DNA of 64,000 nucleotides from assembly GCA_963833425.1 (NCBI GenBank), contig CAWHXP010000003.1:320001-384000 (forward strand). Direction: 5' to 3'. The notes beneath the pieces are model-generated. The model was given only the letters and a program-made list of their open reading frames with translations. It was not told the DNA's origin and made no database searches. Positions 1 through 64,000 of this stretch are shown here, piece by piece. Made by a program: the position numbers and the translations under genes. Origin of the DNA: an uncultured Methanosarcinaceae archaeon (GTDB lineage Archaea > Halobacteriota > Methanosarcinia > Methanosarcinales > Methanosarcinaceae). How positions within the stretch are numbered: the stretch's first letter is position 1; every line of letters starts with the position of its first letter.

Positions 1-203
1 TTTTTGATTTATTTCTTCAAATCATCGCTTCTTTGCTAAATAAGTTTGTTTTTGGTACCATGGTCAGAAGTAGTTCCCCCGCCTCTTTGAATGATGAGAT
101 ACACATTGAAAATTAGACGTCTGTAGCTATATATTGTCAGTTCACAGATAATATCGTGCGTGTTTTTGAGTATATAGTACAATAGAGTACGCCATACCAT
201 ATA

Positions 204-291
204 GAATATTTTGATAAACTCCTAAATTTATCATGTGATTAAAAACTATATATAGATGACTCTTGAAAATCAGAGATTTATAGAAGTATTA
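204..291. mobile_element. MITE family A copy (degenerate)
   Basis: gaatattttgataaac...tgactcttgaaaatcagagatttatagaagt matches the ~88-bp consensus with IS5-type ends GAGGATTTCGATAAAC / GTTTATCGAAATTCTC. Confidence 0.6.
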
Positions 292-344
292 ATCTTCTTG
301 GTTTATTTGGTAATACTTCATTAATCTTATTTGGAGATGCTTAA

Positions 345-797
345 TTAATTTTCTTCAGGACAACAACTGCTTTTATTATGCTTGATTCTCCCACAAATAC
401 CTATTCTTGGATGGCCTAGAGAACGACAAATCTTATTAACCACATTTCTTGAGATATACCCCTCAAACTTTAAAGCTTCATCACAAGCTTCACACCCCGA
501 AAGTCCATAGTGAGAGAGCATCAATTCTATAACTCTGTGACGTCTAACCAAAAACTCAGCATACTCGGTGCCCTTGCATGTCAGACTAATGCCCCTATAA
601 GGCAAATATTCTATAAGACCAGTGGAAGACATCTCTTGCATGGTTTTAGTTATTGTCGAAGGGTCAAGGTGAAAATTATCTGATATGTCTGTTGTACGGA
701 CAATACCTCCTTTCTCAAATATATATTTTAAATATTCACTTTTTTTAGGGCTTAACTCTAGACAATTATTGCATTTCATAATTTGGTGTATATGCAT
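345..797 (-). CDS. DtxR/MntR-family metal-dependent transcriptional regulator
   Basis: EYLKYI, wHTH (RTTDIS..LDPSTITKTM), LTxxG..A..LVRRHRVIE..L, EA..FEGYIS, LGHP; the true start may be the second Met (MKCNN). Confidence 0.9.
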   Translation of the reverse strand: MHIHQIMKCNNCLELSPKKSEYLKYIFEKGGIVRTTDISDNFHLDPSTITKTMQEMSSTGLIEYLPYRGISLTCKGTEYAEFLVRRHRVIELMLSHYGLSGCEACDEALKFEGYISRNVVNKICRSLGHPRIGICGRIKHNKSSCCPEEN

Positions 798-812
798 AAA
801 GTATTTAATATT

Positions 813-829
813 TTTGAGTATGCCCCAAA
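813..829. promoter_or_regulatory. candidate DtxR-family operator (TTTGAGTATGCCCCAAA)
   Basis: 17-bp imperfect palindrome just upstream of the regulator; a similar site TTTGGTATATAACCAAT lies at 1953-1969. Confidence 0.4.
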
Positions 830-1289
830 TTTATAGTGAATTCCATTTCTGAGAAAAAACATATCGAAAGTCTTATGCTTGCTTTTTCAATAATTCACTC
901 TCACAAATTAAAAAAATCAATATCATTAAAGATATAACTATTATAAAAAATGAACTTAATCACAATGTCTATTGAATTTGCTGTCGTCCTCTAAATGGGT
1001 AGATCCTATGATATAAAATGAGAATGCGATTCGTAAAAATAATGAGATCTATAGTTTATTGTTAAAAACTCCAGGAAGAGCGGCGATTTTTCTGTGAAAT
1101 CACAAAGAAGTTACTTGGTAGTAAATTTCAGATTGAAGAACAAATTACACGCAGCACGCAAAAACTTGACTTTGAATTTACAGCAAAACTCGACATTATC
1201 CAATTCCATTTTTTAAAAAGAAATTATTTTTTATAATGTTTTTATAAATAAAATCGGGATATCTACTGTAAAATGAGGGTGAAATAAAA

Positions 1290-1488
1290 ATGAGATTTAA
1301 TGAAAGAGGGGATTCTTACAGAAGTGCTTGTAGAGACTAACAACGGTGGTTTTAAAGCTTTAGTAGTGATTATAGAAAGATGTCAAATGTATTCGCTCTG
1401 ATTGCGGCGTTGAAACCGAAGTTCCTATCAAACCAATTGAAGGATGCTAGTTTACTGTAGAACTTGTCTACCAAAACAAAGGAGTGAT
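1290..1488 (+). pseudogene. CxxC-x17-CxxC zinc-ribbon protein pseudogene
   Basis: RBS gagggtga then MRFNERGDSYRS...NNGGFK...SDCGVETEVPIKPIEG..VYCRTCLPKQR spread over several frames with stops. Confidence 0.7.
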
Positions 1489-5649: not shown

Positions 5650-7251
5650 TTAACGAGTAAGTCCTATCCTTTCATTCCTTTTCTTTTCAGTCTGCATGTC
5701 AAAAAGCATTCCGAAAAGAAGCATTTGAAGTCCTGCACCCAATACAAGGAAGCCAAGAAGAGGATAATAGGGGGGTAGGGAATTATGCAATAGCATCTGC
5801 AGAAAACCCCATAGTCCCAAAAAAAAGCCTACAGGTAGGGCAATCATTCCAATGAAGTAGAATAATACCAGAGGATGGAAATCTAGCACAGTATATTTTA
5901 TTCTTAACCTCCATAGAAAGCCCCTGAAAATCATGGGAGCTACTTTTTGAATAAACTTGCAGTATCGGATCTTGGATTTTTCTCTGCCGTAACGGGCGGG
6001 TATTACCACATCCATTACTCTCATTCCAAAAGCATTAAGCTTAATTAGCAAATCGTTACAATAACCATAATAAGGATAAACTGAATCTAGGTCTATAACC
6101 TCAAGGGCCTGCCTGGAAATAGCTGTATATCCGTTCTGGGGGTCCATAACCTGCCAGTAACCGCTGCTTATTTTTGTGATAAAACTAAGAAGAAGGTTTC
6201 CAAAAGATCTCCATTTGCTCATTCCGATCATAAAATTCTCGGAAAGTAGCCTATTGCCCTTTGTATAATCAGCTTTCCCCTCAATTATTGGGAAAATTAA
6301 CCTGGGGAGCTGAGCAGGATCCATTTGATTGTCTCCGGCCATAACAGCAACTATATCCATTTCATCTTTAAGGGCAAGTTTATACCCATCTATGATTCCT
6401 GCACCTACGCCTTTGTTAAACTCATGTCGGAGGTAAACTATCCTAGGATCTCCGAACTTTTTTACAATCTCACCAGTGCGATCTATACTACCATCATCGA
6501 TTACATAGATTTTATCTACATATTCAGGTATCCCTCTAAGAGTCTCACCTATGAGCAGTTCTTCATTATATGCAGGTACGACGACTCCTATACGCGTATT
6601 CTCAAGCTTTCTGAATATGGGATCAACATCGAAGCTCAGGTAATTTACTTTAAGCTTCTCAGTTTTCGCCGCATATAGCAGGGATTTTAAAGACAAATGC
6701 TCTTTGTCTAAACTTATTTGCTGCAGGGAATCTGAGGTTACGGCAAAGAAACCGATTTTCTCCTTAAAAGTATTTTTTCCATTAAGAAGCATCACTGTTT
6801 CTTGCTCACAGGATACACGGCAGGGCCAGGAGCCTACAGACAAATCAAAACCTTGCTTTATTGGCTCAAGAACATGTGAGAGAAGATCTATATCCTGCAT
6901 GCATTCGGGATAAATAAGGACTACAATATCAGAATCAATAGATGATTTATAAATAACTTGAAGCAGTGATTCCTCTCCGCCTGTTAGAGGAATAACTCTT
7001 GCCCCTCCTAGAGCCGCTACTTCCATAGTTCGATCGGTAGAACCGCGATCAAGTATGAGTACACGGTCAGCATAACTTGCCGCTAATAAGACTTTACTTC
7101 CAATGGAAGCTTCCTCGTTTTGAGTTGGAATCAAAACAGTAAACTCATGTCTGAGAAGCCTATCGATAAGTTGAGATCGTGAAGATGTCATACTAATTGG
7201 GTCGGAAATTAGCAAATTTGAATCAAGTGTAAGGACTGAAAACAAACCCAA
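5650..7251 (-). CDS. GT2 glycosyltransferase with a tandem, degenerate N-terminal GT2 domain
   Basis: VLIPTQNEE..DRGSTDRT, then VVVPAYNEE..IDDGSIDRT..AGDNQMDP..DPQNGY; two C-terminal TM helices. Confidence 0.88.
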   Translation of the reverse strand: MGLFSVLTLDSNLLISDPISMTSSRSQLIDRLLRHEFTVLIPTQNEEASIGSKVLLAASYADRVLILDRGSTDRTMEVAALGGARVIPLTGGEESLLQVIYKSSIDSDIVVLIYPECMQDIDLLSHVLEPIKQGFDLSVGSWPCRVSCEQETVMLLNGKNTFKEKIGFFAVTSDSLQQISLDKEHLSLKSLLYAAKTEKLKVNYLSFDVDPIFRKLENTRIGVVVPAYNEELLIGETLRGIPEYVDKIYVIDDGSIDRTGEIVKKFGDPRIVYLRHEFNKGVGAGIIDGYKLALKDEMDIVAVMAGDNQMDPAQLPRLIFPIIEGKADYTKGNRLLSENFMIGMSKWRSFGNLLLSFITKISSGYWQVMDPQNGYTAISRQALEVIDLDSVYPYYGYCNDLLIKLNAFGMRVMDVVIPARYGREKSKIRYCKFIQKVAPMIFRGFLWRLRIKYTVLDFHPLVLFYFIGMIALPVGFFLGLWGFLQMLLHNSLPPYYPLLGFLVLGAGLQMLLFGMLFDMQTEKKRNERIGLTR

Positions 7252-10194: not shown

Positions 10195-10865
10195 CAGCGA
10201 ATATCTAGCAGTTTATTTCCCTTCTTCTGGAATTGTATGCCATCTTCACTCCATCGCATCCCACTTCTTCACACTTAAAAAATTGATTACTGGCTCAAAT
10301 TATGTTGGCAAGTTGGCGTTTACGTCCATTAGTGGTGATATTCGGATTTCATTTAAATCCTGCTCAACTCTTCCACCGATTTCAGATGAAACCCCATAAC
10401 AAATTAGCCGTATAGAGAAATAGTAAATGAGAGCACAGTGCTAGATCGATCTCTTTGTCACCGAAAGGTAGCAAGAGTAGTTTCAGGGACGTATCTCTTC
10501 TGGATTGTGTCTTTTGTGAAATCTTCCAGAAATTTCGCCATAGCTAACATCCTGATCATCTCGAGCTTCTTAACCGAGCCGAATCTTGCCGAACTAATTT
10601 ATTACAGTTTCTTCAGGTCTGGTTAATAATTTAATCATGTTCTTCAACAATCCGCATTTAATCTGGTAAGCGCTGAAAATAGTAAACAAGATAGATAGAT
10701 ATGACATTTCCACCTCGCTCTATAAACTCTGACTTGAAACTTGTTGGTCTATATCAACAGTCCATTATCTTTCGTTTGAGATCAATAGGAGTCAGACTGA
10801 ACACCCTGAAGTACTCATCTAAAGATCTACCCATGAATTTTTATCACGGTATTTTATTATCATAC
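10195..10865 (-). pseudogene. SAM-dependent methyltransferase pseudogene
   Basis: fragments GRSLDEYFRVFSLT..RKIMDC*, IRMLAMAKFLEDF, GDKEIDLALCSHLLFLY, EIRISPLMDVN, FQKKGNKLL with stops and frameshifts. Confidence 0.8.
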
Positions 10866-11150
10866 AGTGCACTTTAATGCACTTAATTGCAGTTGATATC
10901 AAATTATTTTTACATTTGTTTTGAATAATTATATTTTGGAATTTGTAGTATAACTATTTAAATAAAAATAGATGTATTATTTTTTTTAAAATTTGACTAA
11001 AAATATCCTTTGATTTTGGCTGAAACTGGAAATAGGCTATATTTCACTTTGAAACTTATGCATAAAATGTGCATTTTTTTTCAATTTCTGGAAGAAAGAT
11101 TCGAATATCTCAGAGCCCGTCTTAAATTAGGTTTGATTCTACATTTTAGG

Positions 11151-12374: not shown

Positions 12375-12685
12375 AACTTGAAATTTGTTTCTTTAACATC
12401 TTATTTTGAATGATTGATCGAATTTCTTATCGTGAATGCATTCTGAAAGTCTCTAAGAATTAAAAATGAAAAAACTTTTAGGTAAAGCTTCCTAAATAAT
12501 TCTTCACTAAATTATCTGCTGCGCACTTTTGGATCTGATTTCAGCTTTGGAGGTAAGTTTGGTAGAATGCATAATTTTCTGTAAAATTTGCTCTGTACCT
12601 TTTAATCTTCTTTCTAGATAACTATTCTAGTACTAGCTTGTTTCATATGATCTAAGATGGATCTTAATTAAATATAACGATATAA

Positions 12686-13818
12686 GAGGATTTCGATAAA
12701 CTTCGGATTTTATTTCTTAGCAGGAATTTCTCAGATCTTCCCCTCAATTTCTCTATTTAATTCCTCTTTTTGGCTTTATTTATTCTCAATTCTTTGATTT
12801 TAAAGATAGCTTCCGCTATCTTCAATATACTTTTTTTATTTTCAATGTCCTCAATTGATGGGGATTATAACAAAAAGCCGTACACAACATTTTTAGATTT
12901 ACTCTTTTAACAGTAGTAACAAAAAATCTTCCTGCTTTGGAAATTTCTTTTGTTACTGAATAAACTCTTTCCCCTTGGACTCTTTTTGAGCTAATTCTCT
13001 TATTTCTTAATATATCCCTTATTCCCAGAGTATGTCTTTTGACTGCTCTTTTCATTGTTGCATTATACCCTTTCGTTTTTGCTCCAAAGTATCCTCTGTC
13101 CTTATAAACCACTTCATTTTCCTCTGTCAAATCTACATACGAATCATGTACTGACGCAGTTGTTGTTTGAATCTTCTGATCAGCTCACAATCTCTGTCTA
13201 TTATATTATGAAGCTTATATCCAAAGTGAGACTTACCTCCCTTCTTTGTCCATGTTCCTTCTCTGCTTCTTCTTGTTTTTGCCTCATCTCTCTGCTTTTG
13301 CATGTCCTGGATCTGAATGGATAAAAGTAGCATCCTGAATCATTCCCTGCTTTATCTGTAAACCCAGAGCAGCAAGTTGGCTTTGCAACTTTCCCCATAT
13401 TTTCTTTGAAATTCTCGATAATTCTTTCCCTAAATAGCCATACAGTAGTACTGTCAGGTACGTATTCCGGAAATCCAAGGAATTTCCTAAAAGAAATTCG
13501 ATCTATACACTGTTTCTCAAGTTCAAAATCAGAGAGACCATGCCATTGTTGTAAAACAAGCATTTTGAACATCACAATGACATCAGTTTCAGGTCTCCCT
13601 CTTGAAACGGTTTTGTTAATAGACATAGACTCAAGAATAATACGAAACTTTTTCCAATCAATTCAGGAAGCAATTTCAGCAAGCTTATCTCCAACAGATT
13701 TAAGACGTTTATACTCTTCTTTAAGAGCAAAATCAGTAAGAGTTTTCATGAATATAGATAAATATTGACAAATTTAAAGTCAACAATGCTCAAGAGCATG
13801 GAGTTTATCGAAATTCTC
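12686..13818 (-). mobile_element. IS5-family element copy 1 (frameshifted transposase)
   Basis: TIRs GAGGATTTCGATAAAC / GTTTATCGAAATTCTC; fragments GRP..MFKMLVLQQW..LSD, IQDATFI, FGYKLH, DRGY. Confidence 0.93.
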
Positions 13819-13935
13819 TACAATTAGCAGAAAATAAAATGGAAAGGAAATAAATTCTAGTAAAAATAAGTCGAGTTCGAATGAAAACACTTTTAATTCT
13901 TTAAGCATTTTATTTGAAGAGTTCCATATTTGCTT

Positions 13936-14583
13936 TTAAAAGAGCCCTTTGAAATGGTTATGATAAACCATCCAGAATCCAAATAGTATGATAACCATTC
14001 CAGCTCCCTTTTTAAGGATTTCGTCATACCTTGATATGAGACGGAGTTTTGAGGACGAAAAATGAGCTGAATATGCTAACACGAGCATTGGCACTGAAAA
14101 TCCAAGAGAATAAATTGAAAGGGTGAATGCGCCGTTTGAAGTGCTTCCTTCAAGAGCAACCATGGCCAGGATCGCACCCAGGATTGGTCCTATACAAGGG
14201 ATCCAAAGCACTCCGAGGGAAAGCCCAAGCAAAAGACCCGAGATAGATCCTTCTGCATTCATATCTGCAAAAAGAGGGAACTTCGAAAAAGTGTTGAATA
14301 GGCTTAGTTCAAAAAGCAATGAAAAGCCCATTAAGAGGATCAAAATCTCTGCCACAATCTTCAGTTGACCTATATGACTCTGGAAAGCCGCCCCAAAGAT
14401 GGAAGTTACCACTCCCATTAAAATGAAGGATATTGAGACTCCAAGTACAATTGCAAGAGGCCGTATTTTGCTTTTTCCGGCGGATGTTGCCAGTACAGCT
14501 GGTAGAAGTGGCAGAATGCATGGAGACAGGACACTGAGAATTCCTGCGCCAAATGCAGTTAGAGGGGGAATAGTTTCGTACAT
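13936..14583 (-). CDS. ccdA: CcdA/DsbD-type thiol-disulfide membrane protein
   Basis: LSPCILPLLP and WIPCIGPIL motifs; about six TM segments. Confidence 0.92.
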   Translation of the reverse strand: MYETIPPLTAFGAGILSVLSPCILPLLPAVLATSAGKSKIRPLAIVLGVSISFILMGVVTSIFGAAFQSHIGQLKIVAEILILLMGFSLLFELSLFNTFSKFPLFADMNAEGSISGLLLGLSLGVLWIPCIGPILGAILAMVALEGSTSNGAFTLSIYSLGFSVPMLVLAYSAHFSSSKLRLISRYDEILKKGAGMVIILFGFWMVYHNHFKGLF

Positions 14584-14702
14584 GGTTCTTTTTGATTTTA
14601 GTATATCATTTTTTTATATAGTGTGTATTCTACCCTGAATTATGGGTTGATCAGAGACTTTTGCTTCCGGTCTACATGCGTACTTAGAAATTAGTCCATC
14701 AT

Positions 14703-16741: not shown

Positions 16742-16764
16742 TAGAAATTTCACGAGGTGAAACT

Positions 16765-49525: not shown

Positions 49526-51667
49526 TTATCTTTTTCTACAAAGGAATACAGCTAACAGGGCAGTTATACCACAAATAATTTCGAAGCCAGGAATGCTCGT
49601 CGTCTTTCCTGGATTGATTGGATTTTCTTGTTGTCCAGACGGCTGTTTTGCAGTTGTTGTTGCACTTCCAGTGTTTTGTTTAGGAATCGGATTATTAGTT
49701 TTAGACTTTGTTTCATCCACAGCTTGCTTTGCCGTTGTTTTACCTATTGAGCTGCTACTGCTGCTTAAGCTGCTTTCGCCGCTGCTACTTTTAAAACCAC
49801 TGTTTCCACTGCTACTGCTACCGCTGTTTCCACCCATGGTATTATTAGTGTTGAAACTTGTTACAGGAAGAATTTTTGAGGCGTCAGTCTCAGGAGCTGG
49901 GGCAGTCTCAGGAGTTATTACAGATGGCATACGGCTTTTCGGCAGTTTGCTACTGGTTTTATCAGTGAGCTCGCTGTGTTTAACAGATTCTTTATTTTTA
50001 GTAATTCCGTGATCATTGCAATTATCGTCTAGTCTCACATTGGTTAAGTTGAAGTATTCGATCGGTACTATAGAGCTGACTGATTTAGGACCAAGCTGAT
50101 CACAGTTAACAATTACAGTGTCTTTGATAAACCCATTTTCATTACTGCTTATGTCTGCTGGAGGGACAGTGTAATTACCGACATAGGTCTTTGTTTCCCC
50201 TACTTTTAGAATTCCATCCTTGATCTCAATATTAGTGGGATTCTGATCACTTGCTGGGACTGCAATCTCAGCCAGAGCATCGTTAACTGTTACATTGGAA
50301 AGGTCAATTTTCCCATTATTTGTCACGTCAATCTGGTAACTGATTACATCTCCAGCTTTCGTTACACTTCCTGATGGTCCTCTTCCGGCAACATCAGCGA
50401 CATTTGCGGAAATAGAGCAAGAAGGATCTATAGGTACTGCGATACTAACTGATTTAGGATCCAACTTAGGAGAGTAGACAGTAACAGTGTTGATGAACCC
50501 TCCACCATCGTTATTGGTTATGTCTGCACGAGTAACCGTATAATTTCCGGTATAAGTCCAATTTTCTCCTACGTTGAGAACTGTATCGTTACTGTTTGAA
50601 GCTGTAGGTCCTGTTAAAGTCACCAGGGGATCATCAACAGTTACATTGTTAAGGTCAATGTTTCCGTTATTCGTCACATCAATATGATAGCTGACTACAT
50701 CTCCCTCTTTGGTAATATTTTCTCCAGGTCCGTTTCCGTTAACATCTGTAACTATCATGTTAACTACATATGAGGGAACCTGAACCACAGATGTTTGGTA
50801 ACTATAGTTTTCCGCTCCTAGTTGATCACAATCAACAGTTACATTATTGGTAATGAATCCAGTTCCGTTACCATTACTGTTCATATCATCCTGAGTAACC
50901 ACATAATTACCAGTATAAGTCCTGTTTTCTCCTACGTCGAGAACTGAATCATTACTATTTGACTCCATAGGTTCTATTAGGTTCACAAGAGTACTATTAA
51001 CACTTACATTACTAAGGTCAATGTTTCCATCATTCATCACTACAAACTGATAATTGATTACATCCCCTGCTTTTGTTACATTTTCAGCAGGTTCGTTAAT
51101 GGTTTTTCCTGTAACATTAATAGTTTTATCAATTGTGTATGAAGGATTTTGGATTATAGGCGTTTGAATACTGCTACTTTGGTTTTGAGGTACCTTCCCC
51201 TTTTCATAAACTATCGCTGTGTTGTTGATGAATCCTGTCCCATGTCCATTACTATTTAAGTCATCCTGAGTAACCTCGTAAATACCAGTATAGGTCTTTG
51301 ATTCAAATAGGTTAATCATGGGATCAGTAACTTTTACATTTGCTAAGTTACCGATTTTAACAGGAGTTGTCACATTAATCTGATAGCTGATGATATCGCC
51401 AGCTTTCACTACACTTCCTTCAGGCCCTTTTCCTGCAACATCCGTAACTGTTTTTGTAACTGTGGTTCCTGAAGATAGTATGCCCGGAGTAGAGGTCTGT
51501 GGTAAAGGTGATGCCTCTCCTGCTAGCACAAACGGTGAAAGAACTATAGTAATCATCACTAAAGAAATAAATGAGAGCATCTGATGCTTCATAGCTTTGT
51601 CCATTCTTGGTATCGAAGCAATCAAGAGATTGCTTACAACCGCAAGTTTTGTTTTCTTTTTATCCAT
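49526..51667 (-). CDS. cell-surface protein with DUF11/DUF7507-like Ig repeats and PGF-CTERM
   Basis: four repeats of KAGDVISY.I.VTN.G.IDL.NV..VGE..TYTGNY.VT; Ser/Thr-rich linker; IPGF + TM + basic tail; true start probably a later Met. Confidence 0.9.
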   Translation of the reverse strand: MDKKKTKLAVVSNLLIASIPRMDKAMKHQMLSFISLVMITIVLSPFVLAGEASPLPQTSTPGILSSGTTVTKTVTDVAGKGPEGSVVKAGDIISYQINVTTPVKIGNLANVKVTDPMINLFESKTYTGIYEVTQDDLNSNGHGTGFINNTAIVYEKGKVPQNQSSSIQTPIIQNPSYTIDKTINVTGKTINEPAENVTKAGDVINYQFVVMNDGNIDLSNVSVNSTLVNLIEPMESNSNDSVLDVGENRTYTGNYVVTQDDMNSNGNGTGFITNNVTVDCDQLGAENYSYQTSVVQVPSYVVNMIVTDVNGNGPGENITKEGDVVSYHIDVTNNGNIDLNNVTVDDPLVTLTGPTASNSNDTVLNVGENWTYTGNYTVTRADITNNDGGGFINTVTVYSPKLDPKSVSIAVPIDPSCSISANVADVAGRGPSGSVTKAGDVISYQIDVTNNGKIDLSNVTVNDALAEIAVPASDQNPTNIEIKDGILKVGETKTYVGNYTVPPADISSNENGFIKDTVIVNCDQLGPKSVSSIVPIEYFNLTNVRLDDNCNDHGITKNKESVKHSELTDKTSSKLPKSRMPSVITPETAPAPETDASKILPVTSFNTNNTMGGNSGSSSSGNSGFKSSSGESSLSSSSSSIGKTTAKQAVDETKSKTNNPIPKQNTGSATTTAKQPSGQQENPINPGKTTSIPGFEIICGITALLAVFLCRKR

Positions 51668-52850: not shown

Positions 52851-53824
52851 TCACAATTTTTAGCAGGGTACTAAAAGTTCCATAAAATTTGATTGACTCT
52901 ACAGTCTATTTCGTTCACCACAAAAAGTCAAGGTTCAAAGTCAATGGTTGAAGTCATCTAATTCATAAAAAATTAATATTGTAGATCTGGAAAATGGAAT
53001 TCTTCAACCAAAACTTTGTGGTAGGAAAGAATCTTTTTTTAATTTGGTGTAAAAAGTTATGAGAAGACTAACTACACGAAAGCCAGCAGAAACAACTAAA
53101 ATCCCATAACCCTGAGAACAAATATAGGTAATTCGAATTATTGAAGCCTCAATTCAGTGGGTTCTTTTTTAAATAATATATTTGGTAAAAATTTAATATT
53201 TGTAAGATAGATCGTAACTTCTGTAACTGAATCTTAGATGCAAGGTATCTCTAAAGTGTGGAAAAGAGTATGATTTATTTAGATATGCAAAATTTCTCCC
53301 AAAATGAAAATGATGTTTTTCAAATTAAAGGCTGAAATAAATTAAAGCTTATCCCTCCTGAATCTTTTTGGAACATTCAATGCATCGCTATTTTGAGTAG
53401 AAAATTTGCTCTAATCTTGGTTTGCAAAAACATTGTGAGGAACTTCCAACCTCCCATAAATCAGTTGGATATCTATTTGATCAATATATACTCATGATTA
53501 TTAATGATAGAAAAATAAAAAAATATCATAACAAAAAGTGAAATAAAATCAGTCCACCAAAGTTTGTTTACTGAATCATTGTAAAGATGGCCATTTGTAT
53601 CATTTTGCCAAGCTAAATTATTACCCTGTAGCAATATTGCAGGAAATAAGCTACAGGAAAAATACTCACAGGATAGCCCCTTTATTTGAATTCAACAAAA
53701 TATATTCCAAAAGAGGTTCTTGCTGGAAAATATCAAAAAAATTCTGTCAAAACTTTTAGAATTTCATCACGAAAATAAAAATAGTCTGTATTTTTACTTG
53801 AAAGGATATTCAAAAAGTTATTAA

Positions 53825-53896
53825 TGCGACTGCCGGGATTCGAACCCGGGTTCTAAGCTTGGGAAGCTCAGGTCATAGCCACTAAACTACAGTCGC
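53825..53896 (-). tRNA. tRNA-Gly(CCC)
   Basis: GCGACTG/CAGTCGC acceptor stem, anticodon loop TTCCCAA, GGTTCGAATCC T-arm. Confidence 0.95.
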
Positions 53897-54156
53897 ATAT
53901 AGATATGAGGAACTGTGATAAATTCATCTCATGAATCTTTTAGATATTAAAGGTTTCGGTAGCAATAAAGGGATAACTTAGAGAATTTTTGTATTTTGCC
54001 AAAGAAAATAGAGATTTCCATCACAATCTAAGAAGCTTCATAACGCCCAGATAGATAAAAAAATGTTATGAAAAGGATCCGATCCACAAAGATGGAAATT
54101 AGCTTAAAGCTCTTTAAAAGCAGCATTTACGAGTTGCTGTAATTCAAATAAGTACT

Positions 54157-54243: not shown

Positions 54244-54435
54244 TTAAGTTTCCAGTGTTACGAATTTTATGTTTTTATACATTGAAGCAGGGATGTTTAG
54301 TAGCTTGAAGTGTTGAATAAAACAACTAAGGTAATAAAAAAATCGTGAAATATAGTCCTCACCTACTTTTTGCAGATATGCACACGAATACTATCTCTGT
54401 TCTCAATATAATAGTAGCTTAAGAATAATAATTGA

Positions 54436-55568
54436 GAGTATTTCGATAAACTTCGGATTTTATTTCTTAGCAGGAATTTCTCATATCCTCCCCTCAATTT
54501 CTCTATTTAATTCCTCTTTTTGGCTTTACTTATTCTCAATTCTTTGATTTTAAAGATAGCTTCCGCCATCTTCAATATACTTTTTTTATTTTCAATGTTC
54601 TCAATTGATGGAGATTATAACAAAAAGCTGTAAAACAACATTTTTAGATTTACTCTTTTAACAGTAGTAACAAAAACTCTTCCTGCTTTGAAAATTTCTT
54701 TCGTTACTGAATAAACTCTTTCTCCTGGGACTCTTTTTGAGCTAATTCTCTTATTCCTGAATATATCCTTTATTCCCAGCGTATGTCCTTTGACCGCTCT
54801 TTTCATTGTTGCATTATACCCTTTCGTTTTTGCTCCAAAGTATCCTCTATCCTATAAACCACTTCATTTTCCTCTGTCAAATCTACATACGAATCATGTA
54901 CTGACGCAGTTGTTGTTTGAATCTTCTGATCAGCTCATAATCTCTGTCTATTATATTATGAAACTTATATCCAAAGTGAGACTTACCTCCCTTCTTTGTC
55001 CAAGTACCGTCTCTGCTTCTTCTTGTTTTTGCCTCATCTCTCTGCTTTTGCATGTCCTGGATCTGAATGGATAAAAGTAGCATCCTGAATAATTCCCTGC
55101 TTTATCTGTAAACCCAGAGCAGCAAGTTGGCTTTGCAACTTTCCCCATATTTCCTTTGAAATTCTCGATAATTCTTTCCCTAAATAGCCATACAGTAGTA
55201 CTGTCAGGTACGTATTCCGGAAATCCAAGGAATTTCCTGAAAGAAATTCGATCTATACACGGTTTCTCAAGTTCAAAATCAGAGAGCCCATGCCATTGTT
55301 GTAAAACAAGCATTTTGAACATCACAATGACATCAGTTTCAGGTCTCCCTCATGAAACGGTTTTGTTAATACACATAGACTCAAGAATAATACGAAACGT
55401 TTTCCAATCAATTAAGGAAGCAATTTCAGCAAGCTTATATCCAACAGATTCAAGACGTTTATACTCTTCTTTAAGAGCAAAATCAATAAGAGTTTTCATG
55501 AATATAAATAAATATTTACAAATTTAAAGTCAACCATGCTCAAGAGTAGGGAGTTTATCGAAATTCTC
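54436..55568 (-). mobile_element. IS5-family element copy 4 (frameshifted) with TTGA target duplication
   Basis: both TIRs; TTGA at 54432-54435 and 55569-55572. Confidence 0.93.
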
Positions 55569-55746
55569 TTGAGTTTAAAAATGTCAATTTATTAAAAAAT
55601 ATAATTGATCCGTGAGTAGATTAAACAACAATTAAATTCGGAGGACAAAAAAGATAATCATCTTCCAGAAGCTACAACTTTAAATCACATCCCTCCCTTT
55701 TTATCCCATAATAGAACTCTTGTAAATTTCATTCGGTGACCTTTTT

Positions 55747-58614
55747 ATGAAACATAGGATTTACAAGTATTATCCTGAGGACTTCGGAAAGCTTACATTT
55801 GAAGTTTTGCACATGGACCTTATTTTTGATGTCTATGATGACAAGACTAATGTGAAATCCATGCTAAGGGTAAGGACCAAAGATGAGCCTATAGAGAAAC
55901 TGGAATTAAACTGCAAGGACCTTGAGATTAGAGCCGTAAGCTGCATACAGTATGAGGTCTCTTACAAATATAGGAAACATGATGCGATTCTTGAAATTAA
56001 TTTTATGGATATAATCCCCCCACATACTGAGATCTCGGTCATTACGGATACAGTTTGCAGGCCAACCAAAAATATCCTTGAGGGTCTGTACTATGACGAG
56101 ACTCCAGCAGGAGCTCCGCAGCAGCAGATCACACAATGCCAACAGTGGGGTTTCCAGAGGATCGTGCCCTGCATTGATGACATGAGAGCAAAGTGCACTT
56201 ATAAAACTACCATAATTGCAGACTCAAGGTATACTAACCTTATCACAAATGGAAATATCCTGGTCAATCGGCGAACCTTAAAGCCTGGAAGGGACAAAAT
56301 AGTTTATGAGAACTCGATCACTCCAATGGCTACATATCTCTTTTTCCTTGGGGTGGGAACTTATTCGACCTTTACTAGGAAGTTTGAGTACCCTGATGGA
56401 GGAACCTTCATGATTGAGCTGCTCGTGCCACCCGGTTCAAGCGCAGAAGCTGCAGAAAAAGCCCTCAGCATTCTGCATGATGCAATTATGTGGGTGTACA
56501 TCTTTACAGGGCCTGAGCAGTTCGACGAAGAAAAATTGCCGATCAGGAAGAAAGTCTGGGAACTTGTCCGCAAGCAAGAGAAAATAAAACTTGAGACAAA
56601 GTCCGAATCCATGCTAAGAGAATCCGCGAAGGTCAGGAATGATCTTACAGAACTTGTCAAAAAAATCAATCACGGGTATAAGTATACAGGTACCATATAC
56701 AGGGAAATAGGGATGCAGAATTCGGACTTTGGGGGCATGGAAAATGTGGGAAACACCACAATTACAACAAACCGCATTATGCCTTCCCCTTACACAACTG
56801 ACCCAGCTTTTGAGTATATGATTCGGGTCAAGTTACATGAATATTACCACAACGAGAACGGATCCGAAGTCACAGGAAAAAGCCCATTTGAGATTTGGTT
56901 GAATGAAGCTGTGACTGTGCACGTAGAAGAGCAGTATCACGCCTTACTCTTCGGCGAAGATTACCAGAGACTGAGCAGGGTGCTAGATCTCCTCGCGCCT
57001 GCATCTGGTACTCTAGCCCTGGACTCTGGAGCCGCTTCCATGCCAATTATCCCTGATGGTTTTAATGATCCTAATGATCTGATCACTGCAGTTACCTACA
57101 TAAAAGCCCCGGAATACGTGGGCATGGTCGAAACCTTGATCGGAAAAGATACATTTGCAAGGGGTCTAGATCTTTACTTCAGGAAATTCAGGCACTCTAA
57201 TGCAGGTACGCAGGATTGGATAGAAGCAATGGAAACAGAAAGCGGACAGCCCTTAAAAGAAATGTCTGAGACCTGGCTTAGACAGATAAAATTCCCCATA
57301 GTGGAGGTTTCAACTAAATACGAAAAAGCCTCACGAAAGTTCACTATCCTCCTGAAACAGAATGTTTCTGAGGGCGCAAAGCCATGGGAGTTTCCTTTCA
57401 GAGTGGCACTTGTGGATGTAAATGGAAATGACCTTGTAGAAGTTCTGGAAAGGGTCAGTGGAGAGACTGCGAAAATAACTGCTGAAAACGTGGACATTCC
57501 AGCCTTTCTCTCCCTGAATAGGGGTTATTCTTTTTATGGGAAACTTGTTTACAAAGCCAGCCAAGATGAGCTTTTGTTGCAGGTAAGAAAAGACAGAGAC
57601 ATAATAGGCAGATTTACAGCTTTTTATACCCTAGTTGACAGGGAAAAGATGAATCTCCTAACAAATTCTGAATCAAAGCCTTCAGAAGACTTTATTGAGC
57701 TCTACTACAGGCTCTTGAATGATCGACAACTTCTCGAAAAGGCAGGAGGCCAATTTTTGACCATCTTTGAGTCCGTGGAAGACGAGGAGTTTGCCCACCG
57801 TTACCAGGCACTCTATGATGTAAAGCAGAAGCTATTAAAGGCAGTTGCCTGGAAATACAAAAATTCAGTTGTTTCAGCCTACCGTTTTTTTGAAAATTCC
57901 TCAGTTATGAGGGATTCGACGTTAGAAGAAACAGCAAGAGTAATCAAAAGCAGACAGGCAAAAAATATATGTCTAGGCACCCTTGCAACCCTTGATACTC
58001 CTGACATCCATTTCCTCATAAAACAGCAGTTTGAGAATGCAACCTGCGCAACTGATAAGCTTAACGCATTTACTGCATACCTTAACAGCTCTGTATCTGA
58101 CAAAATTGAAGTCCTGAAAGCTTTTGAAGCAGAATCAATGCAAAATTTCGTTGCCTGGGAAGCCTTCCTCGCAGTTATAGGAAACAACAGCAGTGCTGAT
58201 GCTGTCAAACTGATTAGAGAAATGGGAAGATCAAAAGCTTTCAGAATTGAGCAAACAAATGACCAGCGAGCCCTTTACGGAAGCTTTGCTCGCAATCGCA
58301 AGAAGTCTCTCCAGACAGAAGAAGGCAGAGAGCTCTTTGCAGAAAGCCTACGAAAACTGGCATCGGTAAATGAGTATAGTACGGTCAATATGCTCAACGC
58401 TTTTGCAAATATAGACAAGATGGAGTTGAAGTATCATATCCCATTGATAAAAATCTTAGCAAATCTCATTGAAGAATTGGACTACCAGAAGTTTCCTAGC
58501 GTCCATAACCGGATTCGGAAACTCCTTCTTGGAGCTCCGAAAGCTGTCAAATCATATAGTATAGCTCACGGAGAAATTCAGGCTATGCAGCTGGAAAATG
58601 CTGAGAAGAAGTAA
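55747..58614 (+). CDS. pepN: M1-family aminopeptidase N
   Basis: TQCQQWGFQRI, GGMEN, HEYYH-x18-E, VTY.KA. Confidence 0.93.
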   Translation: MKHRIYKYYPEDFGKLTFEVLHMDLIFDVYDDKTNVKSMLRVRTKDEPIEKLELNCKDLEIRAVSCIQYEVSYKYRKHDAILEINFMDIIPPHTEISVITDTVCRPTKNILEGLYYDETPAGAPQQQITQCQQWGFQRIVPCIDDMRAKCTYKTTIIADSRYTNLITNGNILVNRRTLKPGRDKIVYENSITPMATYLFFLGVGTYSTFTRKFEYPDGGTFMIELLVPPGSSAEAAEKALSILHDAIMWVYIFTGPEQFDEEKLPIRKKVWELVRKQEKIKLETKSESMLRESAKVRNDLTELVKKINHGYKYTGTIYREIGMQNSDFGGMENVGNTTITTNRIMPSPYTTDPAFEYMIRVKLHEYYHNENGSEVTGKSPFEIWLNEAVTVHVEEQYHALLFGEDYQRLSRVLDLLAPASGTLALDSGAASMPIIPDGFNDPNDLITAVTYIKAPEYVGMVETLIGKDTFARGLDLYFRKFRHSNAGTQDWIEAMETESGQPLKEMSETWLRQIKFPIVEVSTKYEKASRKFTILLKQNVSEGAKPWEFPFRVALVDVNGNDLVEVLERVSGETAKITAENVDIPAFLSLNRGYSFYGKLVYKASQDELLLQVRKDRDIIGRFTAFYTLVDREKMNLLTNSESKPSEDFIELYYRLLNDRQLLEKAGGQFLTIFESVEDEEFAHRYQALYDVKQKLLKAVAWKYKNSVVSAYRFFENSSVMRDSTLEETARVIKSRQAKNICLGTLATLDTPDIHFLIKQQFENATCATDKLNAFTAYLNSSVSDKIEVLKAFEAESMQNFVAWEAFLAVIGNNSSADAVKLIREMGRSKAFRIEQTNDQRALYGSFARNRKKSLQTEEGRELFAESLRKLASVNEYSTVNMLNAFANIDKMELKYHIPLIKILANLIEELDYQKFPSVHNRIRKLLLGAPKAVKSYSIAHGEIQAMQLENAEKK

Positions 58615-58727
58615 GTTCGCAATTATACCTCTTTTCTGTTGTGGAAAAATAAGATACAGGAGAGAAATTTTGATCAAAATTTTTAATTGTGAGTATTTTG
58701 ATAAAACTTCTATACATTTGAGCATTG

Positions 58728-59420
58728 GAGAATTTAAATCTCTCAACAATAATTTTTACTCATGAAAAATCCGACCGATTTCGCTCTCAAAGAAGATTTC
58801 AAACATCTTAATTCAGTTGGAGACAAACATTGTGAGATTAGCCCCTTAATAATTGAAAATCATTTCGTATCAGTTTTAGGTCCATACTTTAATAAAACCG
58901 TTTTCTGAAACAGACCTAAAGCTGAAGTTATCGTTATGTTTAAAATGCTTGTTTTACACTAATGGCAGGGTTTTTTTTCGACTTTAAACTTGAGAAAAAA
59001 ATTAATTAATCGAATTTTATTCAAAATAGTTCTTATTTTTCCTGAGTACTTACCAGACAGTACCACAGTCTAATAATTCTGAAAAGATTTATTGGTAATA
59101 GTAAAGAAGAACAAATATGGGAACAGTTTCAAAGCCAAATTTGTTGCCTTGGTTCAAAATAGAAAAGGAACTATTCAGAGAACTACTTTTATCCATTCAG
59201 ATTCTGGACATACAAAAGCAGATAAACCTCGAGAAAATGAAGCAGGAACGAAATTTGAACAAAAAGATACTAAGTAACACTTTGGATATAAATTTCATAT
59301 TAATAATAGATAAGGATTATGAGATGATCAGAAATTCAAAACAATAACCGGATAACTTTTAATTCTCAGATAGATTTATCCGAAAAATAAGTGGTTTACA
59401 GGACCAAAAGGAGTATTTTA
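58728..59420 (+). mobile_element. old, decayed IS5-family copy
   Basis: MKNPTDFALKEDFK..VGDK..RPKAEVIVMFKMLVL..PDSTTV..KEEQIWEQ..FIHSDSGHTKADKPR..FGYKFH. Confidence 0.85.
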
Positions 59421-59879
59421 AAGATAAATCAATCTATTTTTAAAATGAAAGAATAATAAACCAGAAAAATAATGAGGTCAAATATAAAAATTAGAAGGAC
59501 AGAATTTCCGCGAAGAAAAAAATTAGAGTAAATCCAAATCTTCTAAAAATATAAACTTCTAAGGCGCTCAATCTTAAATTCTTATGATTTCAAACATGCT
59601 TACAATTTAGGCTAGAGATCATATAAAAAATGAATCACATTCTTTTAAGATACGATTCCCATAGACAACAAGAGGCTGAAGATAAATATTTTTGTTCATC
59701 TATTACTTCTTCCGTTATTAAGTAAAAAACGGAAATTCTGAAAATATACTTTTTACACGGTTATAGCTATTTTGAGTAATTTTTGTAACAAAAACTTGGT
59801 TTTTAAGTGAGGACTTTCCGAATTTTAGAGATTTGTGATAAATGAAATAACATGTTCAGTATAAACCCTTGTTTACAGA

Positions 59880-60821
59880 CTAAAAATCGAGTCTCTTAAA
59901 AGCATGATAAGAACCCAGTACTTTTAAAGTATCAACTTTGCCTTTCAGTTCTTCTAAGACATATTTTATAACCGCATTGCTTGCATACCCTTCAAAATCG
60001 ATATAGAAGTAATAATCTCCTAAGCCCCTTTTCGAAGGCCTTGACTCAATTTTTGTCAGATTAATTTTTCTTTTTGCAAAAGCCCCAAGTATATCATATA
60101 AAGCCCCTTGTCTATTTTTTTCAAGATATATAATCAGGGAAGTTTTGCAAGCTGAAAGGCTAAGCTTCTCGGGTTCTATTCCAAGTTCATACTGGAACTT
60201 AGATCCTGATTCCAATCCTAACTGTAATTTCCTTTTGGTATTTGAAGCAAGTGAAACCTGTTCAAATGAATTGGCTTTCCCGGCTTTCAAAACAATGAAA
60301 CGAGTGTAGTTTTCTTTCTGGTCTTGTATGTTTGAAAGAAGAATTTTCAGCCCATAACACTCTGCGGCCTCAGGTGACGCTATTGCTGCCATTTCTTCGA
60401 ACTCTCCTGCGAGTCTGGCTGCATGGGAAGTACTGCCTGTGCTCCGGAGTTCTGCCTTAGGGAGATATTTTTTTAGGAAATTTCTACACTGAGCAAGCCC
60501 CTGTGGATGCGAGAGAATGATCCTGACATTATCGAGCCTACCTTTAGAGAGTAAACAGTGTTCTATTTTGAGAACAATCTCTCCAACTATTACAGCTTCA
60601 TTTTCGAGAAAAAGGTCAAGAGTGATACCTACTGAGCCTTCAATAGAATTCTCTACTGGTATTATGGAAATATCTGATTTTCCTTGGACCGCCGCCAAAA
60701 ATGTATCCTCTATGTCTGCAAAGTATTGAATTTCTGCGTCGATCAAGCCACATTTTAGAATCCACAACTTTGCAGCTTTTTCTGAGTATGAGCCTTCAGG
60801 CCCCATTACGCCTATGATCAT
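59880..60821 (-). CDS. pheA: prephenate dehydratase
   Basis: GPEGSYSE, PVENSIEGSV, SHPQGLAQC, N.TRF, ACT domain with IESRPS. Confidence 0.95.
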   Translation of the reverse strand: MIIGVMGPEGSYSEKAAKLWILKCGLIDAEIQYFADIEDTFLAAVQGKSDISIIPVENSIEGSVGITLDLFLENEAVIVGEIVLKIEHCLLSKGRLDNVRIILSHPQGLAQCRNFLKKYLPKAELRSTGSTSHAARLAGEFEEMAAIASPEAAECYGLKILLSNIQDQKENYTRFIVLKAGKANSFEQVSLASNTKRKLQLGLESGSKFQYELGIEPEKLSLSACKTSLIIYLEKNRQGALYDILGAFAKRKINLTKIESRPSKRGLGDYYFYIDFEGYASNAVIKYVLEELKGKVDTLKVLGSYHAFKRLDF

Positions 60822-62238
60822 CTAAGAAATTAATTGGGGTTGATAGTAATAGTATTTTTTGATGATCCGAAATTCTGGTGTTTCAATGGTATATTTGGTC
60901 GTGCCATATTAGATATAGCCGTGCTGATTTCTATTTATTCAAATTTATTTCTTCGCGGTGATCCTGTCCAAATCGTTCTCGTTAATTTTTATATTTGACC
61001 CTAATAAGAAATTGATTAAATGTTTAAAACAGTCTTTGAGGAAATTAGGCACCTTTATGGGTAGATAATAAATCTGAAAAAACATGCATTAAAAAGCCTA
61101 CCCGTGTTATGGATAAGATTTCGTCTAAAGATTTCGATATAAACTGCACAAAAGAAACCGGAAATCAGTAAGAGAATATAAACATTAAATTAAAAAGGTC
61201 TGTAATTAAGCTTTTAGAAGCTTGTTAGGCAAATGTTTAACTGCTTCCGATTAACAGTTAAAATTTACTGAATGCACTAATATCTAGTTTATCCCACAGC
61301 TTACTTTACACTAAAAAATATGATATCATAACTTAGAAGTTACTTTTCATATCTTATATTCCGAATAACCTAACAAATTCTGGATCATAAAATCAATTCG
61401 GAAATATTACAACTATCAAAAAAGAATGGTTTTGAAGATGAGCTTATTTAGAAGTATTCAGTATTTATGTATTTACTAATTATATTGTGGGATGAAATAG
61501 GACTTGTATTCAAATAAAAGGATATATACAAGCAAGCAACATCAACATAGACTTGTAATGATAAATATACTGTTCTTATCGTAGAGTTTACTCCAAAAAT
61601 AGCTATTTGAATTGATTCCGCAAAGAATATCGATATTTTCAAGGAAATCAGCGATTATGCAATTGATAGGCCGTTCTCCTCTAGCTAAAGTATTTTGAAA
61701 AAAATTCTAATTTAAATAGATAAAGATCTTCGCTATTTAGAGTGGAAAATTTAAAATCATCCTCCAAATAGGATATAACATATTTAATATTTGAAAAAAT
61801 TTTGTTTGAAAAAAACATTACGAATCGACAATTCCTCTTCGGTTTAGTTACTTCAATTGAAAAATTATTTTCAAACAATACAAAACATCGAGAGCCATTT
61901 TCTGCATGTATATTACCTGGATATTCGCAATAAACTGCGTATTTGCCATTTGGTTTATGCACATTTAGCTCAAAGCCCACCCTTAGCATAGCTCGTCTTT
62001 CCTAAGATCCTTACTACTAAGCCCAAAAGATTTCTACTCGCCAAACATTTACTTTTTACAGTCAAACTGTCTGCGAGTTAGATCTATTAATACCCGAACA
62101 CACCATTGTTTCGGATATATATATGAACAAATAAAAATATTAATAACTTAGTTAAAAATGCTGAAACTCATAGATTTTTTGATGCAAAATTCGGTAATCA
62201 ATGATATAAAGCAAATCGGATTTAAAAGAAAAAATTAA

Positions 62239-62325
62239 GATGGTTTCAATGAACCTCATATTTTCACGAAATAATCACACTGATTAAAATCACATAATAA
62301 AAATTAGATATTTATCGAAATCATC
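62239..62325 (-). mobile_element. MITE family A copy (degenerate)
   Basis: ends tatttatcgaaatcatc; internal ttttcacgaaat. Confidence 0.6.
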
Positions 62326-62361
62326 CTTATTTTTCAGACACAACTTTTTTACATGCCACAG

Positions 62362-63334
62362 GGCTCTGTAGAAATGCTCTAAATTCAACTTTTACACTAT
62401 AGTATTATAACTACTCAGTTATAATATTCCCCTTATTTTTTCGCTAAAAACGAAGGAACGTTCAATATTTAAATTTAATAAGTACATTAAATTTGTTGAT
62501 ACTAGTTTTGAAAGTTCAGTCTTCGAGACTAAAGCTTTATTCCTGCAAGTATTCAAAATACGTTTATACCCAGCACCAGCTTCTCGAACTGTTTTTATTG
62601 AAAGAGTAGATTAGTATAGCCTATCGAAATTTTGTAGAACTTATTAACCTTATGAGCGATATAAAAGAAAAGCTCGCTCTTGATAAGATTCCACATTTTA
62701 TTACCCTTCAAAAATTTGTAACCATATTCCCTCCTCTCTGTTTAACCTCTTCTGCCAAGGATTCTAAAGCTGTTTTATTCATATGGATAAAGGGTCTCTG
62801 TTGCAGCGATTGATGCAACAGGATTTACGAGTTCATATGCAAGTTATTATTATTCCAGAAAAACAGGGAGCTTCAATATCATTAGACATAAGTAATAAGG
62901 TAATATTGGGATGGAAAATTAGTCAAAAAACAGACCATGAAATCAAACATGCAAATGCTTTGAAAGGCAATCAAATAAGATGTGAAAGTCTGATTGTTAT
63001 GTAATGGATAAAGGATACGATTCAGAAAAAAATATATTCTATAAGTAGATAAGAAATCAAAGCAGATTCAATTATACCTGTAAGAGAGAGAAAAAGGAAG
63101 AAAAATAAGAGGAAAATATAGGAAACAATCAAACCTAGTCTTTGACAAAATTAAATATAATCAAAAAAATATTGTGGAGACAATGTTTTCTGTAGTAAAA
63201 AGAAAATTAGGAGAAATACTAAGGACAAGGATATTCCTTATCAAGTAAAGGAGACTAAAATTAAATTAACAGTATACAACACGAACAAAAACGTTATAGA
63301 AATAATTTACATCAAATTAAGGATTTCTGCAGCC
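62362..63334 (+). mobile_element. decayed IS5-like DDE element of a second lineage
   Basis: TIRs ggctctgtagaaat / atttctgcagcc; MDKGYDSEKI..IIPVR..Y.QKNIVETMFSVVKRKLGE. Confidence 0.8.
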
Positions 63335-63784
63335 TGCATCAGTACCATTTAATAGCACAAATGGCTCAAAATATAAATCAATTATTCAAGAACGTACCAA
63401 AAAGAAGATTTCCATCCCACAGCAAGATACTGGTTATTAGCTAAATTTAAAATCCCAACATTTCACACCCATCTAGTGGATAAGTTACTTAAAATTAGAT
63501 CTAAAGTAATGATTCCAAAGTATAGCCAAAAAAGCTGTAAGAGACCTATTTAATTAGATGTGATCAAACTTATCACCAATATATCCTAATCAGCGAATGG
63601 AAAACAAAAAGGTACTTGAAAAATAAATCAAGTAAAAAATATGAGAAATTTACGCCGTTTGCAGCACTCGAGCATTCTGGTTACACAGCCAGAAACTTTG
63701 CCAACTGAGTTAAAGCGGTTTTCTGATGAAAACTGTTGAGATCTGCAGTTATTCTTATACAAATATCCTAGAGTATAAAATTCA

Positions 63785-63859
63785 TGGGCCTGACCGGATT
63801 TGAACCGGTGACCGCTCGGTTATGAGCCGAGCGCTCTAACCTGACTGAGCTACAGGCCC
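63785..63859 (-). tRNA. tRNA with CAT anticodon, probably tRNA-Ile2 (agmatidine type)
   Basis: GGGCCTG/CAGGCCC acceptor, CTCGG-CTCATAA-CCGAG anticodon arm; G1-C72 GGGCC start is Ile-like, not initiator-like. Confidence 0.85.
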
Positions 63860-64000
63860 TTATTGAATCTATACATCTTAAGTGATTAGTTAGCAGCTAG
63901 TATGAAGCTATAACCCTTATTATAACAGTTAAAGGGGCTTGTATTCTTCGAGAAAAAGTGAACTTTAGATTGTACAAAAGTCTTACGCCGCTTGCAGGGC

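Follow-up and report, generated by a model that had tools for sequence, protein, structure and literature searches.

The window considered here is a 64,000 bp stretch of DNA from an uncultured archaeon of the Methanosarcinaceae, corresponding to positions 320001-384000 of contig C3 in the source assembly, G000 (4.07 Mb, 21 contigs, 36% GC). The subject is how little of this DNA is occupied by intact genes, and what lies between them. Intact open reading frames (ORFs), being those with family support or clear conservation, account for 26,005 bp, or 40.6% of the window (1..64000), in agreement with a first-pass annotation that put the intact coding sequences at about 26.4 kb and the coding share at about 41%. 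Dispersed repeats make up 19%, and the rest is pseudogene fossils and AT-rich (31% GC) unassigned DNA. Two tRNAs are the only RNA genes identified in the window by ARAGORN and Rfam.

Pseudogenes and mobile elements in the window

The following pseudogenes were located.

10249..10881, minus strand: pseudogene of a 232-aa protein with no Pfam family, aligned by tblastn with an intact ORF of the congener G007; three frames, at least 9 stops
11285-12175, minus strand: methanogenesis marker 8 (TIGR03275/DUF2099) in three pieces, the middle one out of frame
30673..31167, minus strand: rubrerythrin-like pseudogene, 38% identity to a G007 ORF, 9 stops
32286..33036, minus strand: FMN-reductase (flavoprotein) pseudogene, two frames, 9-11 stops
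34199-34486, plus strand: DUF202 fragment, of which profile positions 3-32 of 68 remain
39417-39632, plus strand: pseudogene of the chromatin protein MC1 with one in-frame TGA and one in-frame TAG
44412-45522, plus strand: second cofH, a full-length fossil in three frames with at least 8 stops

The breakage of MC1, marker 8, the second cofH and DUF202 had been recognised in the first-pass annotation and is confirmed. The rubrerythrin-like, FMN reductase and 232-aa protein pseudogenes are additions to that list, found through comparison with the intact ORFs of relatives. Pfam searches of six-frame fragments yielded few pseudogenes, most surfacing only through such comparison. Pfam searches did not locate the SAM methyltransferase pseudogene that had been proposed; they covered 300 of the 309 six-frame fragments with a length of 40 aa or more, all but the final 9 (63025-63896). 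The only candidate for a supposedly decayed CxxC-x17-CxxC protein is a 68-aa zf-AN1 ORF at 33431-33637, which looks intact.

It had also been suggested that normally conserved methanogen genes are decaying here. The genes are broken as named, but in the window the dead copies are spare paralogues: three intact MC1 genes are found elsewhere in G000, one intact copy of marker 8 is left (C13:4035-4802), and cofH itself is still intact. The second cofH paralogue, which lies between cofH and cofC, is intact in the congeners G006, G004 and G013 (388-421 aa) and is a fossil of the same length in G000. In the marker 8 pseudogene the outer two pieces are in one frame and just the 77 codons between them are in another, which points to two compensating indels.

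Mobile DNA is abundant, with 28 segments of the window (12,205 bp in total) having at least three other copies in the genome, close to the figure of about 30 mobile-element pieces given before. Among these are six dead copies of one element resembling the insertion sequence (IS) IS5. The main elements are as follows.

12558..13837, minus strand: dead IS5-like element (DUF772 + DDE_Tnp_1), two frames, 6 stops
19496-20205: IS110-family remnant
20277-20942: degraded IS5-like copy
27029..29192, minus strand: repeat block containing a dead IS5-like copy (28176-29101; three frames, 2 stops)
46246..48008, minus strand: dead IS5-like copy (46395-47202) and IS200 Y1 transposase fragment (47655-47780), with no counterpart at the same place in the relative G031
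54419..55584, minus strand: dead IS5-like copy, 17 stops
58676..59506, plus strand: degraded IS5-like copy
62361..63332: unclassified dispersed repeat with up to 42 other copies

In G000 as a whole, 32% of the sequence is repeated at least once elsewhere (identity of 75% or above) and 13.6% at least three times, an expansion that is expressed in figures for G000 only. The IS5-like family (DUF772 + DDE_Tnp_1) is present at 145 loci, 70 of them near-full, with no intact transposase and a mean of 8.2 stops per near-full copy when set against the intact transposase of G004. The IS6-like family (DDE_Tnp_IS240) is present at 90 loci, 49 near-full and 15 with an intact transposase, and those of its copies that were listed share 86.6-96.1% identity with the query copy. 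There are also two intact integrase families. The IS6-like family was considered as a gauge of assembly error and rejected, since the copies are old in their own right (87-96% identity) and, of the 49 near-full ones, just 15 are intact.

The IS5-like copies at 12685-13830 and in at least 13 other places in G000 are 95-97% identical in DNA, and all are stop-ridden relative to the intact congener transposase. It may be that a copy of this element that was already defective was the one to spread, mobilised in trans. Repeats of about 100 bp at 33124-33219 and 40398-40507 have 25-29 other copies, and contigs from other metagenomes join differently at or near such repeats (33169, 39820, 40454, 46250-46274 and 49273). 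They resemble small elements that are mobile or prone to recombination.

Coding density across the genome

ORF cover, the share of bases within ORFs of at least 100 aa, is 50.1% for the whole of G000 and 45.7% for the window, which ranks 48th lowest among 191 overlapping 64-kb windows. The nearest sampled relative, G031, a separate assembly in 120 contigs that is 83-90% identical to G000 in syntenic DNA, has a cover of 47.0% (27 loci, 534 kb). The values for the congeners are 64.6% in G005 (3 loci), 65.6% in G004 (10 loci), 72.5% in G013 (13 loci), 74.5% in G006 (7 contiguous loci) and 76.0% in G007 (10 loci). G000 is thus far below its relatives throughout its genome, at 50.1% against 65.6-76.0% in the four main congeners (G004, G006, G007 and G013). 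Non-overlapping ORFs number 619 per Mb in G000, with a median of 217 aa, as compared with 655-773 per Mb and medians of 254-271 aa in these four. The GC content of coding DNA is 40.5% in G000 and 41.7-43.8% in the relatives, and that of non-coding DNA in G000 is 31%; the low overall GC of G000 is therefore due to its larger non-coding share.

Genome-wide density had been proposed as a check on the first-pass reading, and the decay does span the genome. With 28 repeat pieces and at least six dead IS5-like copies, the window could in principle be a local graveyard of insertion sequences, the only degraded region of an otherwise normal genome. This is refuted by the genome mean and by the 47 of 191 windows that are sparser still; broken orthologues and IS copies are also found on many contigs.

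Authenticity of the lesions

A set of 525 ORFs of at least 120 aa from the four congeners was compared with G000, of which 196 matched at 55% identity or more, 129 only more weakly and 200 not at all. The 196 matches represent 180 loci in G000: 142 pass as intact, a frame change alone is seen in 10, an in-frame stop alone in 11 and both in 10, and 9 are partial (these classes total 182, two loci apparently falling into two classes). Explicit lesions are therefore present in 31 of the 180 conserved orthologue loci, and in 21 of these 31 there are in-frame stops. Identity to the relatives is 68.5-75.4% for lesion-bearing loci and 78.6% for intact loci.

There are 57 distinct in-frame stops (24 TAA, 19 TGA and 14 TAG). 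Because all three kinds stand opposite many different residues, mostly one substitution away from a stop (E, Y, C, W, G), stop-codon recoding and pyrrolysine read-through were rejected as explanations; in addition, pylS was not found in the assembly.

The lesions might instead have been produced by assembly or consensus error, indels and wrong bases in a metagenome-assembled genome breaking frames and mimicking pseudogenes. In favour of this are a completeness of 80% despite only 21 large contigs, and the 10 of 180 orthologue loci with a frameshift alone. Against it, 21 of the 31 lesion-bearing loci have in-frame stops, and broken genes are more diverged than intact ones. In the acetate kinase gene ackA the two inserted bases lie outside homopolymer runs and are accompanied by a GGA-to-TGA change. 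The separate assembly G031 is as sparse and as broken, with 9 intact, 7 lesion-bearing and 8 partial among 24 orthologues found in its 534-kb sample, and some stops in its cofH fossil are the same as those in G000. Contigs from four sequencing runs (two studies) cross the pseudogene regions of the window collinearly, covering 27-30 of 30 bins (30001-50000, at least 92% identity). Among the alignments listed, the differences between these contigs and the window in coding parts are limited to one in-frame gap of 3 bases and to indels lying no more than about 12 bases from annotated starts. One metagenome form has a 261-bp replacement within the cofH fossil. An artefact of one assembly, which had been named as something that would undo the first-pass reading, is not borne out and is very unlikely; the lesions look real.

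Split core genes are also seen in two other assemblies that are 81-84% complete in few contigs, G005 (ackA, pylS, mtaB and an M1 peptidase) and G032 (cdhA and pylS). These reflect either wider decay in the genus or assembly errors.

Age and tempo of the decay

Alignment of syntenic blocks between G000 and G031 gives an identity of 90.1% for coding DNA (19,597 ungapped columns) and 82.3% for non-coding DNA (9,748 columns), with gaps six times as dense in the latter. Divergence is 17.7% in non-coding DNA and 20.6% at 4-fold sites (524/2,540), as compared with 6.5% and 5.1% at codon positions 1 and 2. Since the first two values are so close, the non-coding half of the genome is evolving near the neutral rate, and the intact genes are under purifying selection.

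These figures also bear on whether much of the non-coding DNA is functional, as long untranslated regions, small RNAs or regulatory DNA kept by selection. Function of this kind has been argued for the non-coding DNA of the free-living cyanobacterium Trichodesmium. The likeness is to a free-living prokaryote with an unusually low coding share, but in Trichodesmium erythraeum the non-coding DNA is conserved and expressed, while that of G000 is largely recognisable as dead genes and IS copies and is near-neutral. In favour of function, 9.7 kb of the window's non-coding DNA can still be aligned with G031, its divergence is slightly below that of 4-fold sites, and contigs from an RNA library, which may contain DNA, fall on some non-coding bins. 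Much of it is nevertheless demonstrably dead genes and IS copies, it has six times the gap density of coding DNA and a near-neutral divergence, and the Rfam matches are to the two tRNAs only. Function for much of this DNA is accordingly unlikely.

The cofH fossils of G000 and G031 are 78.6% identical over 1,119 columns and have common stops at query positions 199, 256 and 308, so the second cofH died before the two lineages split. Of 19 orthologues common to the G000 and G031 samples, both copies are intact in 8 and both carry lesions in 1; lesions are confined to G031 in 4 and to G000 in 1, and the other 5 are partial in one genome or both. The gene for the NMT1-like binding protein is split in G031 only, its G000 copy being intact, and ackA and uvrA are dead in G000 only. 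Such lineage-specific lesions indicate that decay is ongoing in both lineages. The reduction had been described as early; instead, the sparse state and at least one pseudogene had arisen before G000 and G031, now about 0.2 substitutions apart per neutral site, separated, and the decay is ancient and ongoing rather than an early burst.

Genes retained and lost

Among the genes of methanogenesis, mcrA and mtd are intact in G000, fwdB has two intact copies (8 congeners have 3-4 matches), and frhA has one, the only copy, the gene being present in named Methanosarcina. The ackA gene is a pseudogene in G000 (G000:C2:57031-58220). Of the 22 other genomes in which it was matched, 21, G031 among them, have it unbroken, and in G005 it is split. 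The G000 copy is a recent pseudogene, 92.8% identical in nucleotide sequence to the intact G031 gene. The methanol methyltransferase gene mtaB has been reduced to a 150-aa C-terminal stump (G000:C3:66493-66939); other genomes usually have 2-4 matches, with one in G031 and none in G009. No mttB was found in G000, and no pylS in G000 or G031, although pylS is present in 21 of the 24 other genomes.

Two repair genes were examined. In G000 mutS is intact, and uvrA is in three pieces (G000:C3:415182-417929) with one TGA and a shift of frame; each of the 23 other genomes of the genus that gave a match has an unbroken copy. The loss of uvrA may add to the mutation load.

This pattern suggests a narrowing from a versatile ancestor towards methanogenesis from H2 and CO2, within an assembly that is 80% complete. 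A life of H2 scavenging had been put forward for this organism as a symbiont. A drift towards H2/CO2 fits the dead ackA, the truncated mtaB and the failure to find pylS and mttB, but the symbiotic part is not supported.

The F420-reducing hydrogenase

The hydrogenase in the window is encoded by a single operon.

34493..38081, minus strand: frhA-frhD-frhG-frhB, coenzyme F420-reducing hydrogenase, intact, 57.5% GC in a 31-40% GC background

All four subunits are in operon order and score above their curated cut-offs, with frhA at 594.5 bits (cut-off 392.5), frhD at 222.1 (134.95), frhG at 360.7 (245.5) and frhB at 446.3 (331.5). The GC-rich block lies at 34484-38522. The operon is present in G031 at 89-90% nucleotide identity, in inverted orientation. 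Inverted repeats were considered as the cause of this inversion and rejected, the only pair (33149-33181 and 40451-40483) lying within blocks that keep their orientation and not at the breakpoints.

It had been proposed that this is an imported H2-uptake hydrogenase. It is the ordinary F420-reducing FrhADGB. Among records titled Methanosarcina (sp. Ant1, sp. T3, M. spelaei and several metagenome-assembled genomes (MAGs)), the identity of FrhA is 86-94%; it is 72-81% in most records titled Methanomicrobiales, Methanoregulaceae or Methanolinea, and 87-91% in a few Methanomicrobiales MAGs. The Methanomicrobiales supply the majority of the relatives from beyond the genus. In all 16 Methanosarcina-group loci measured, frhA has 54-61% GC between flanks of 32-50% GC; the five Methanomicrobiales loci measured have flanks that are themselves GC-rich. 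All named Methanosarcina records that were measured have the same GC-rich operon, which is therefore no import confined to this lineage. It looks like an old acquisition at the level of the genus with unrelaxed composition, or a case of maintained composition, and has no bearing on symbiosis. Contigs filed under an Acidobacteriota MAG and Methanomicrobiales MAGs (L101, L108, L134 and L135) encode FrhA 88-91% identical to that of G000 and are likely binning errors or recent transfers.

Habitat and the question of a host

Near-identical words of the window are present in 19 runs from 15 studies labelled as peat, wetland, soil or plain metagenome, at shares of up to 0.23. The four public runs with collinear contigs, three labelled metagenome and one peat metagenome, match at 92% identity or more, most below 99%; habitat labels were used for these four runs only, and contig depths were not used to rank genes. 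The run labels suggest an environmental organism, with which a protist host in peat is still compatible.

A host-associated or intracellular methanogen was the lifestyle favoured in the first-pass annotation. Confinement would shrink the population and relax selection, leading to IS bursts and mass pseudogenisation while H2 scavenging is retained. The syndrome does resemble that of early symbiont genomes in its low coding density, pseudogenes, IS load and broken repair gene, and the retention of frh, mtd, fwdB and mcrA beside a dead ackA and truncated mtaB fits a dependence on H2. Yet no host signal of any kind was seen, the words of the window come from peat, wetland and soil metagenomes of 15 studies, the 4.07 Mb assembly is not reduced, and the decay is old and common to two species. 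There is also no precedent among archaeal symbionts. The endosymbiotic genera listed in the consulted part of a ciliate survey (PMC12662959) do not include Methanosarcina. Known archaeal symbionts lack extensive genome reduction according to the excerpted text of a 2026 preprint (bioRxiv 10.64898/2026.05.13.724943), and DPANN symbionts are described as having 'very few pseudogenes' in the excerpt of a 2018 review. The methanogen endosymbionts Methanocorpusculum and Methanobrevibacter, for which a host-bound, H2-consuming life has been proposed, are alike in being methanogens, but as described in the excerpts of these two sources (bioRxiv 10.64898/2026.05.13.724943, PMC12662959) they offer no precedent for the decay syndrome of G000. 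A host-bound life is therefore improbable.

Interpretation

The reading we prefer, at a probability of about three in four, is an ancient and ongoing genome decay in an environmental (peat, wetland and soil) clade of Methanosarcina, of which the window is an ordinary sample. The sparse state of the whole genome, the kinds of lesion and their age, and the identity of the dead genes are matters of observation. Under this reading, nonsense substitutions, small indels and insertion sequences would kill genes faster than dead DNA is deleted. Gene fossils, dead IS copies and AT-rich remnants would then build up until only about half of the genome is coding. The process would have started before the G000/G031 split and run separately in each lineage afterwards. 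Its first losses would have been spare paralogues (MC1, marker 8 and cofH) and optional pathways of a versatile ancestor (acetate kinase, methanol methyltransferase and the pyrrolysine system), while the core CO2-reduction pathway and the F420-reducing hydrogenase would be held by purifying selection.

The cause would be relaxed selection and drift together with a weak deletion bias, and perhaps impaired repair after the loss of uvrA. Relaxed selection, which had been proposed before, is plausible given the death of redundant paralogues, the broken uvrA and a ratio of non-synonymous to synonymous substitution (dN/dS) of 0.135-0.23 against G031 in five genes; the comparison with other pairs (0.03-0.14 at saturated dS) is weak.

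Several points weigh against the reading. The rise in dN/dS is confounded by saturation and time-dependence and is only suggestive. Coding cover is an ORF proxy rather than the output of a gene caller, and the four congeners are represented by 40 sampled 20-kb stretches, 140-260 kb each, those of G006 forming one contiguous block. Completeness by marker genes is just 80%, and a minority of the 10 frameshift-only loci may be consensus errors. The cdhA gene, present in all 15 genomes that are at least 90% complete, was not found in G000, but its expected place by synteny with G031 is past the end of contig C4 and it was not scored as a loss. About one third of the window has no recognisable origin, and for this part the word fossil is itself interpretive.

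Prokaryotic genomes are expected to be compact, since deletion clears dead DNA, and the exceptions known to us are host-restricted bacteria. Mycobacterium leprae offers the closest likeness, being about half coding, with old, multi-lesion pseudogenes near their original length, and having lost catabolic versatility while keeping the core. It differs in having few active IS elements and in being an obligate intracellular pathogen, whereas G000 belongs to an archaeon that was sampled from environmental metagenomes and for which no host is known. Sodalis glossinidius and other recently host-restricted bacteria likewise have large genomes that are about 50% coding with many pseudogenes and IS elements, but these are recent events in insect hosts, and the state of G000 predates a split at about 0.2 neutral substitutions per site with no host indicated. 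Within the genus, Maeder et al. are said to have noted, in 2006, that one part of the Methanosarcina barkeri chromosome is sparse in genes. That species shares a trend to more transposases and lower gene density, and the sparsest of the four main congeners here, G004, has 65.6% cover; G000 and G031, however, are at 47-50% across the whole genome and core catabolic genes have been inactivated.

We are somewhat inclined to see in this clade an archaeal counterpart of decay in the style of the leprosy bacillus: a peat and wetland group of Methanosarcina with about half of the genome in neutral fossils since before a species split, no sign of a host, and one member that has become an H2/CO2 specialist without the use of acetate, methanol or pyrrolysine. 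No report of such a decayed genome in Methanosarcina or other archaea was found in the literature, and the words 'pseudogene', 'coding density' and 'transposase' are absent from PMC10805028.

If the reading is correct, about 50% coding and old full-length pseudogenes in an environmental archaeon would mean that this state needs no host, and the clade would offer a natural setting in which deletion bias and drift could be measured in the Archaea. It would also explain the low marker completeness of a large and contiguous assembly, and would advise caution in reading metabolic potential from gene fragments in the genomes of peatland methanogens. Of acetate kinase and methanol methyltransferase only wreckage is left, which bears on the assignment of methane pathways in peat.

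Other features of the window

The remaining features of the window are these.

345-797, minus strand: DtxR-type repressor, intact (Pfam)
2392-4990, plus strand: metal-uptake operon of ZnuA, ABC ATPase and ABC-3 permease, intact (Pfam)
5650..7251, minus strand: GT2 glycosyltransferase (AglJ-like), intact, 94% amino acid identity to the G031 orthologue
13936..19409: DsbD-like protein, thioredoxin, NMT1-like binding protein (16765-17793) and MfnB 4-HFC-P synthase (18702-19409), all intact
22788..27972: TetR regulator, nitroreductase, UPF0114 and TPR protein, all intact (Pfam), with unassigned DNA and a 305-bp multi-copy repeat (24424-24728) between
31452..32132, minus strand: archaeoflavoprotein AfpA, intact
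40753..44411, plus strand: ferredoxin, FAD oxidoreductase, cofG and cofH, all intact
45523..46149, plus strand: cofC, intact
48653..51667: kinase-like AAA_18 gene, intact, and PGF-CTERM surface protein (49526-51667, minus strand), intact
53824..53897, minus strand: tRNA-Gly(CCC) (ARAGORN, Rfam)
55747..58614, plus strand: M1 aminopeptidase, intact
59880..60821, minus strand: prephenate dehydratase, intact
63785..63859, minus strand: tRNA-Met (ARAGORN, Rfam)

Between G000 and G031, the gene for the PGF-CTERM surface protein diverges by 11.4% and 12.3% at codon positions 1 and 2 and by 12.6% at 4-fold sites, and has many in-frame indels. This reflects either diversifying selection or a lack of constraint.

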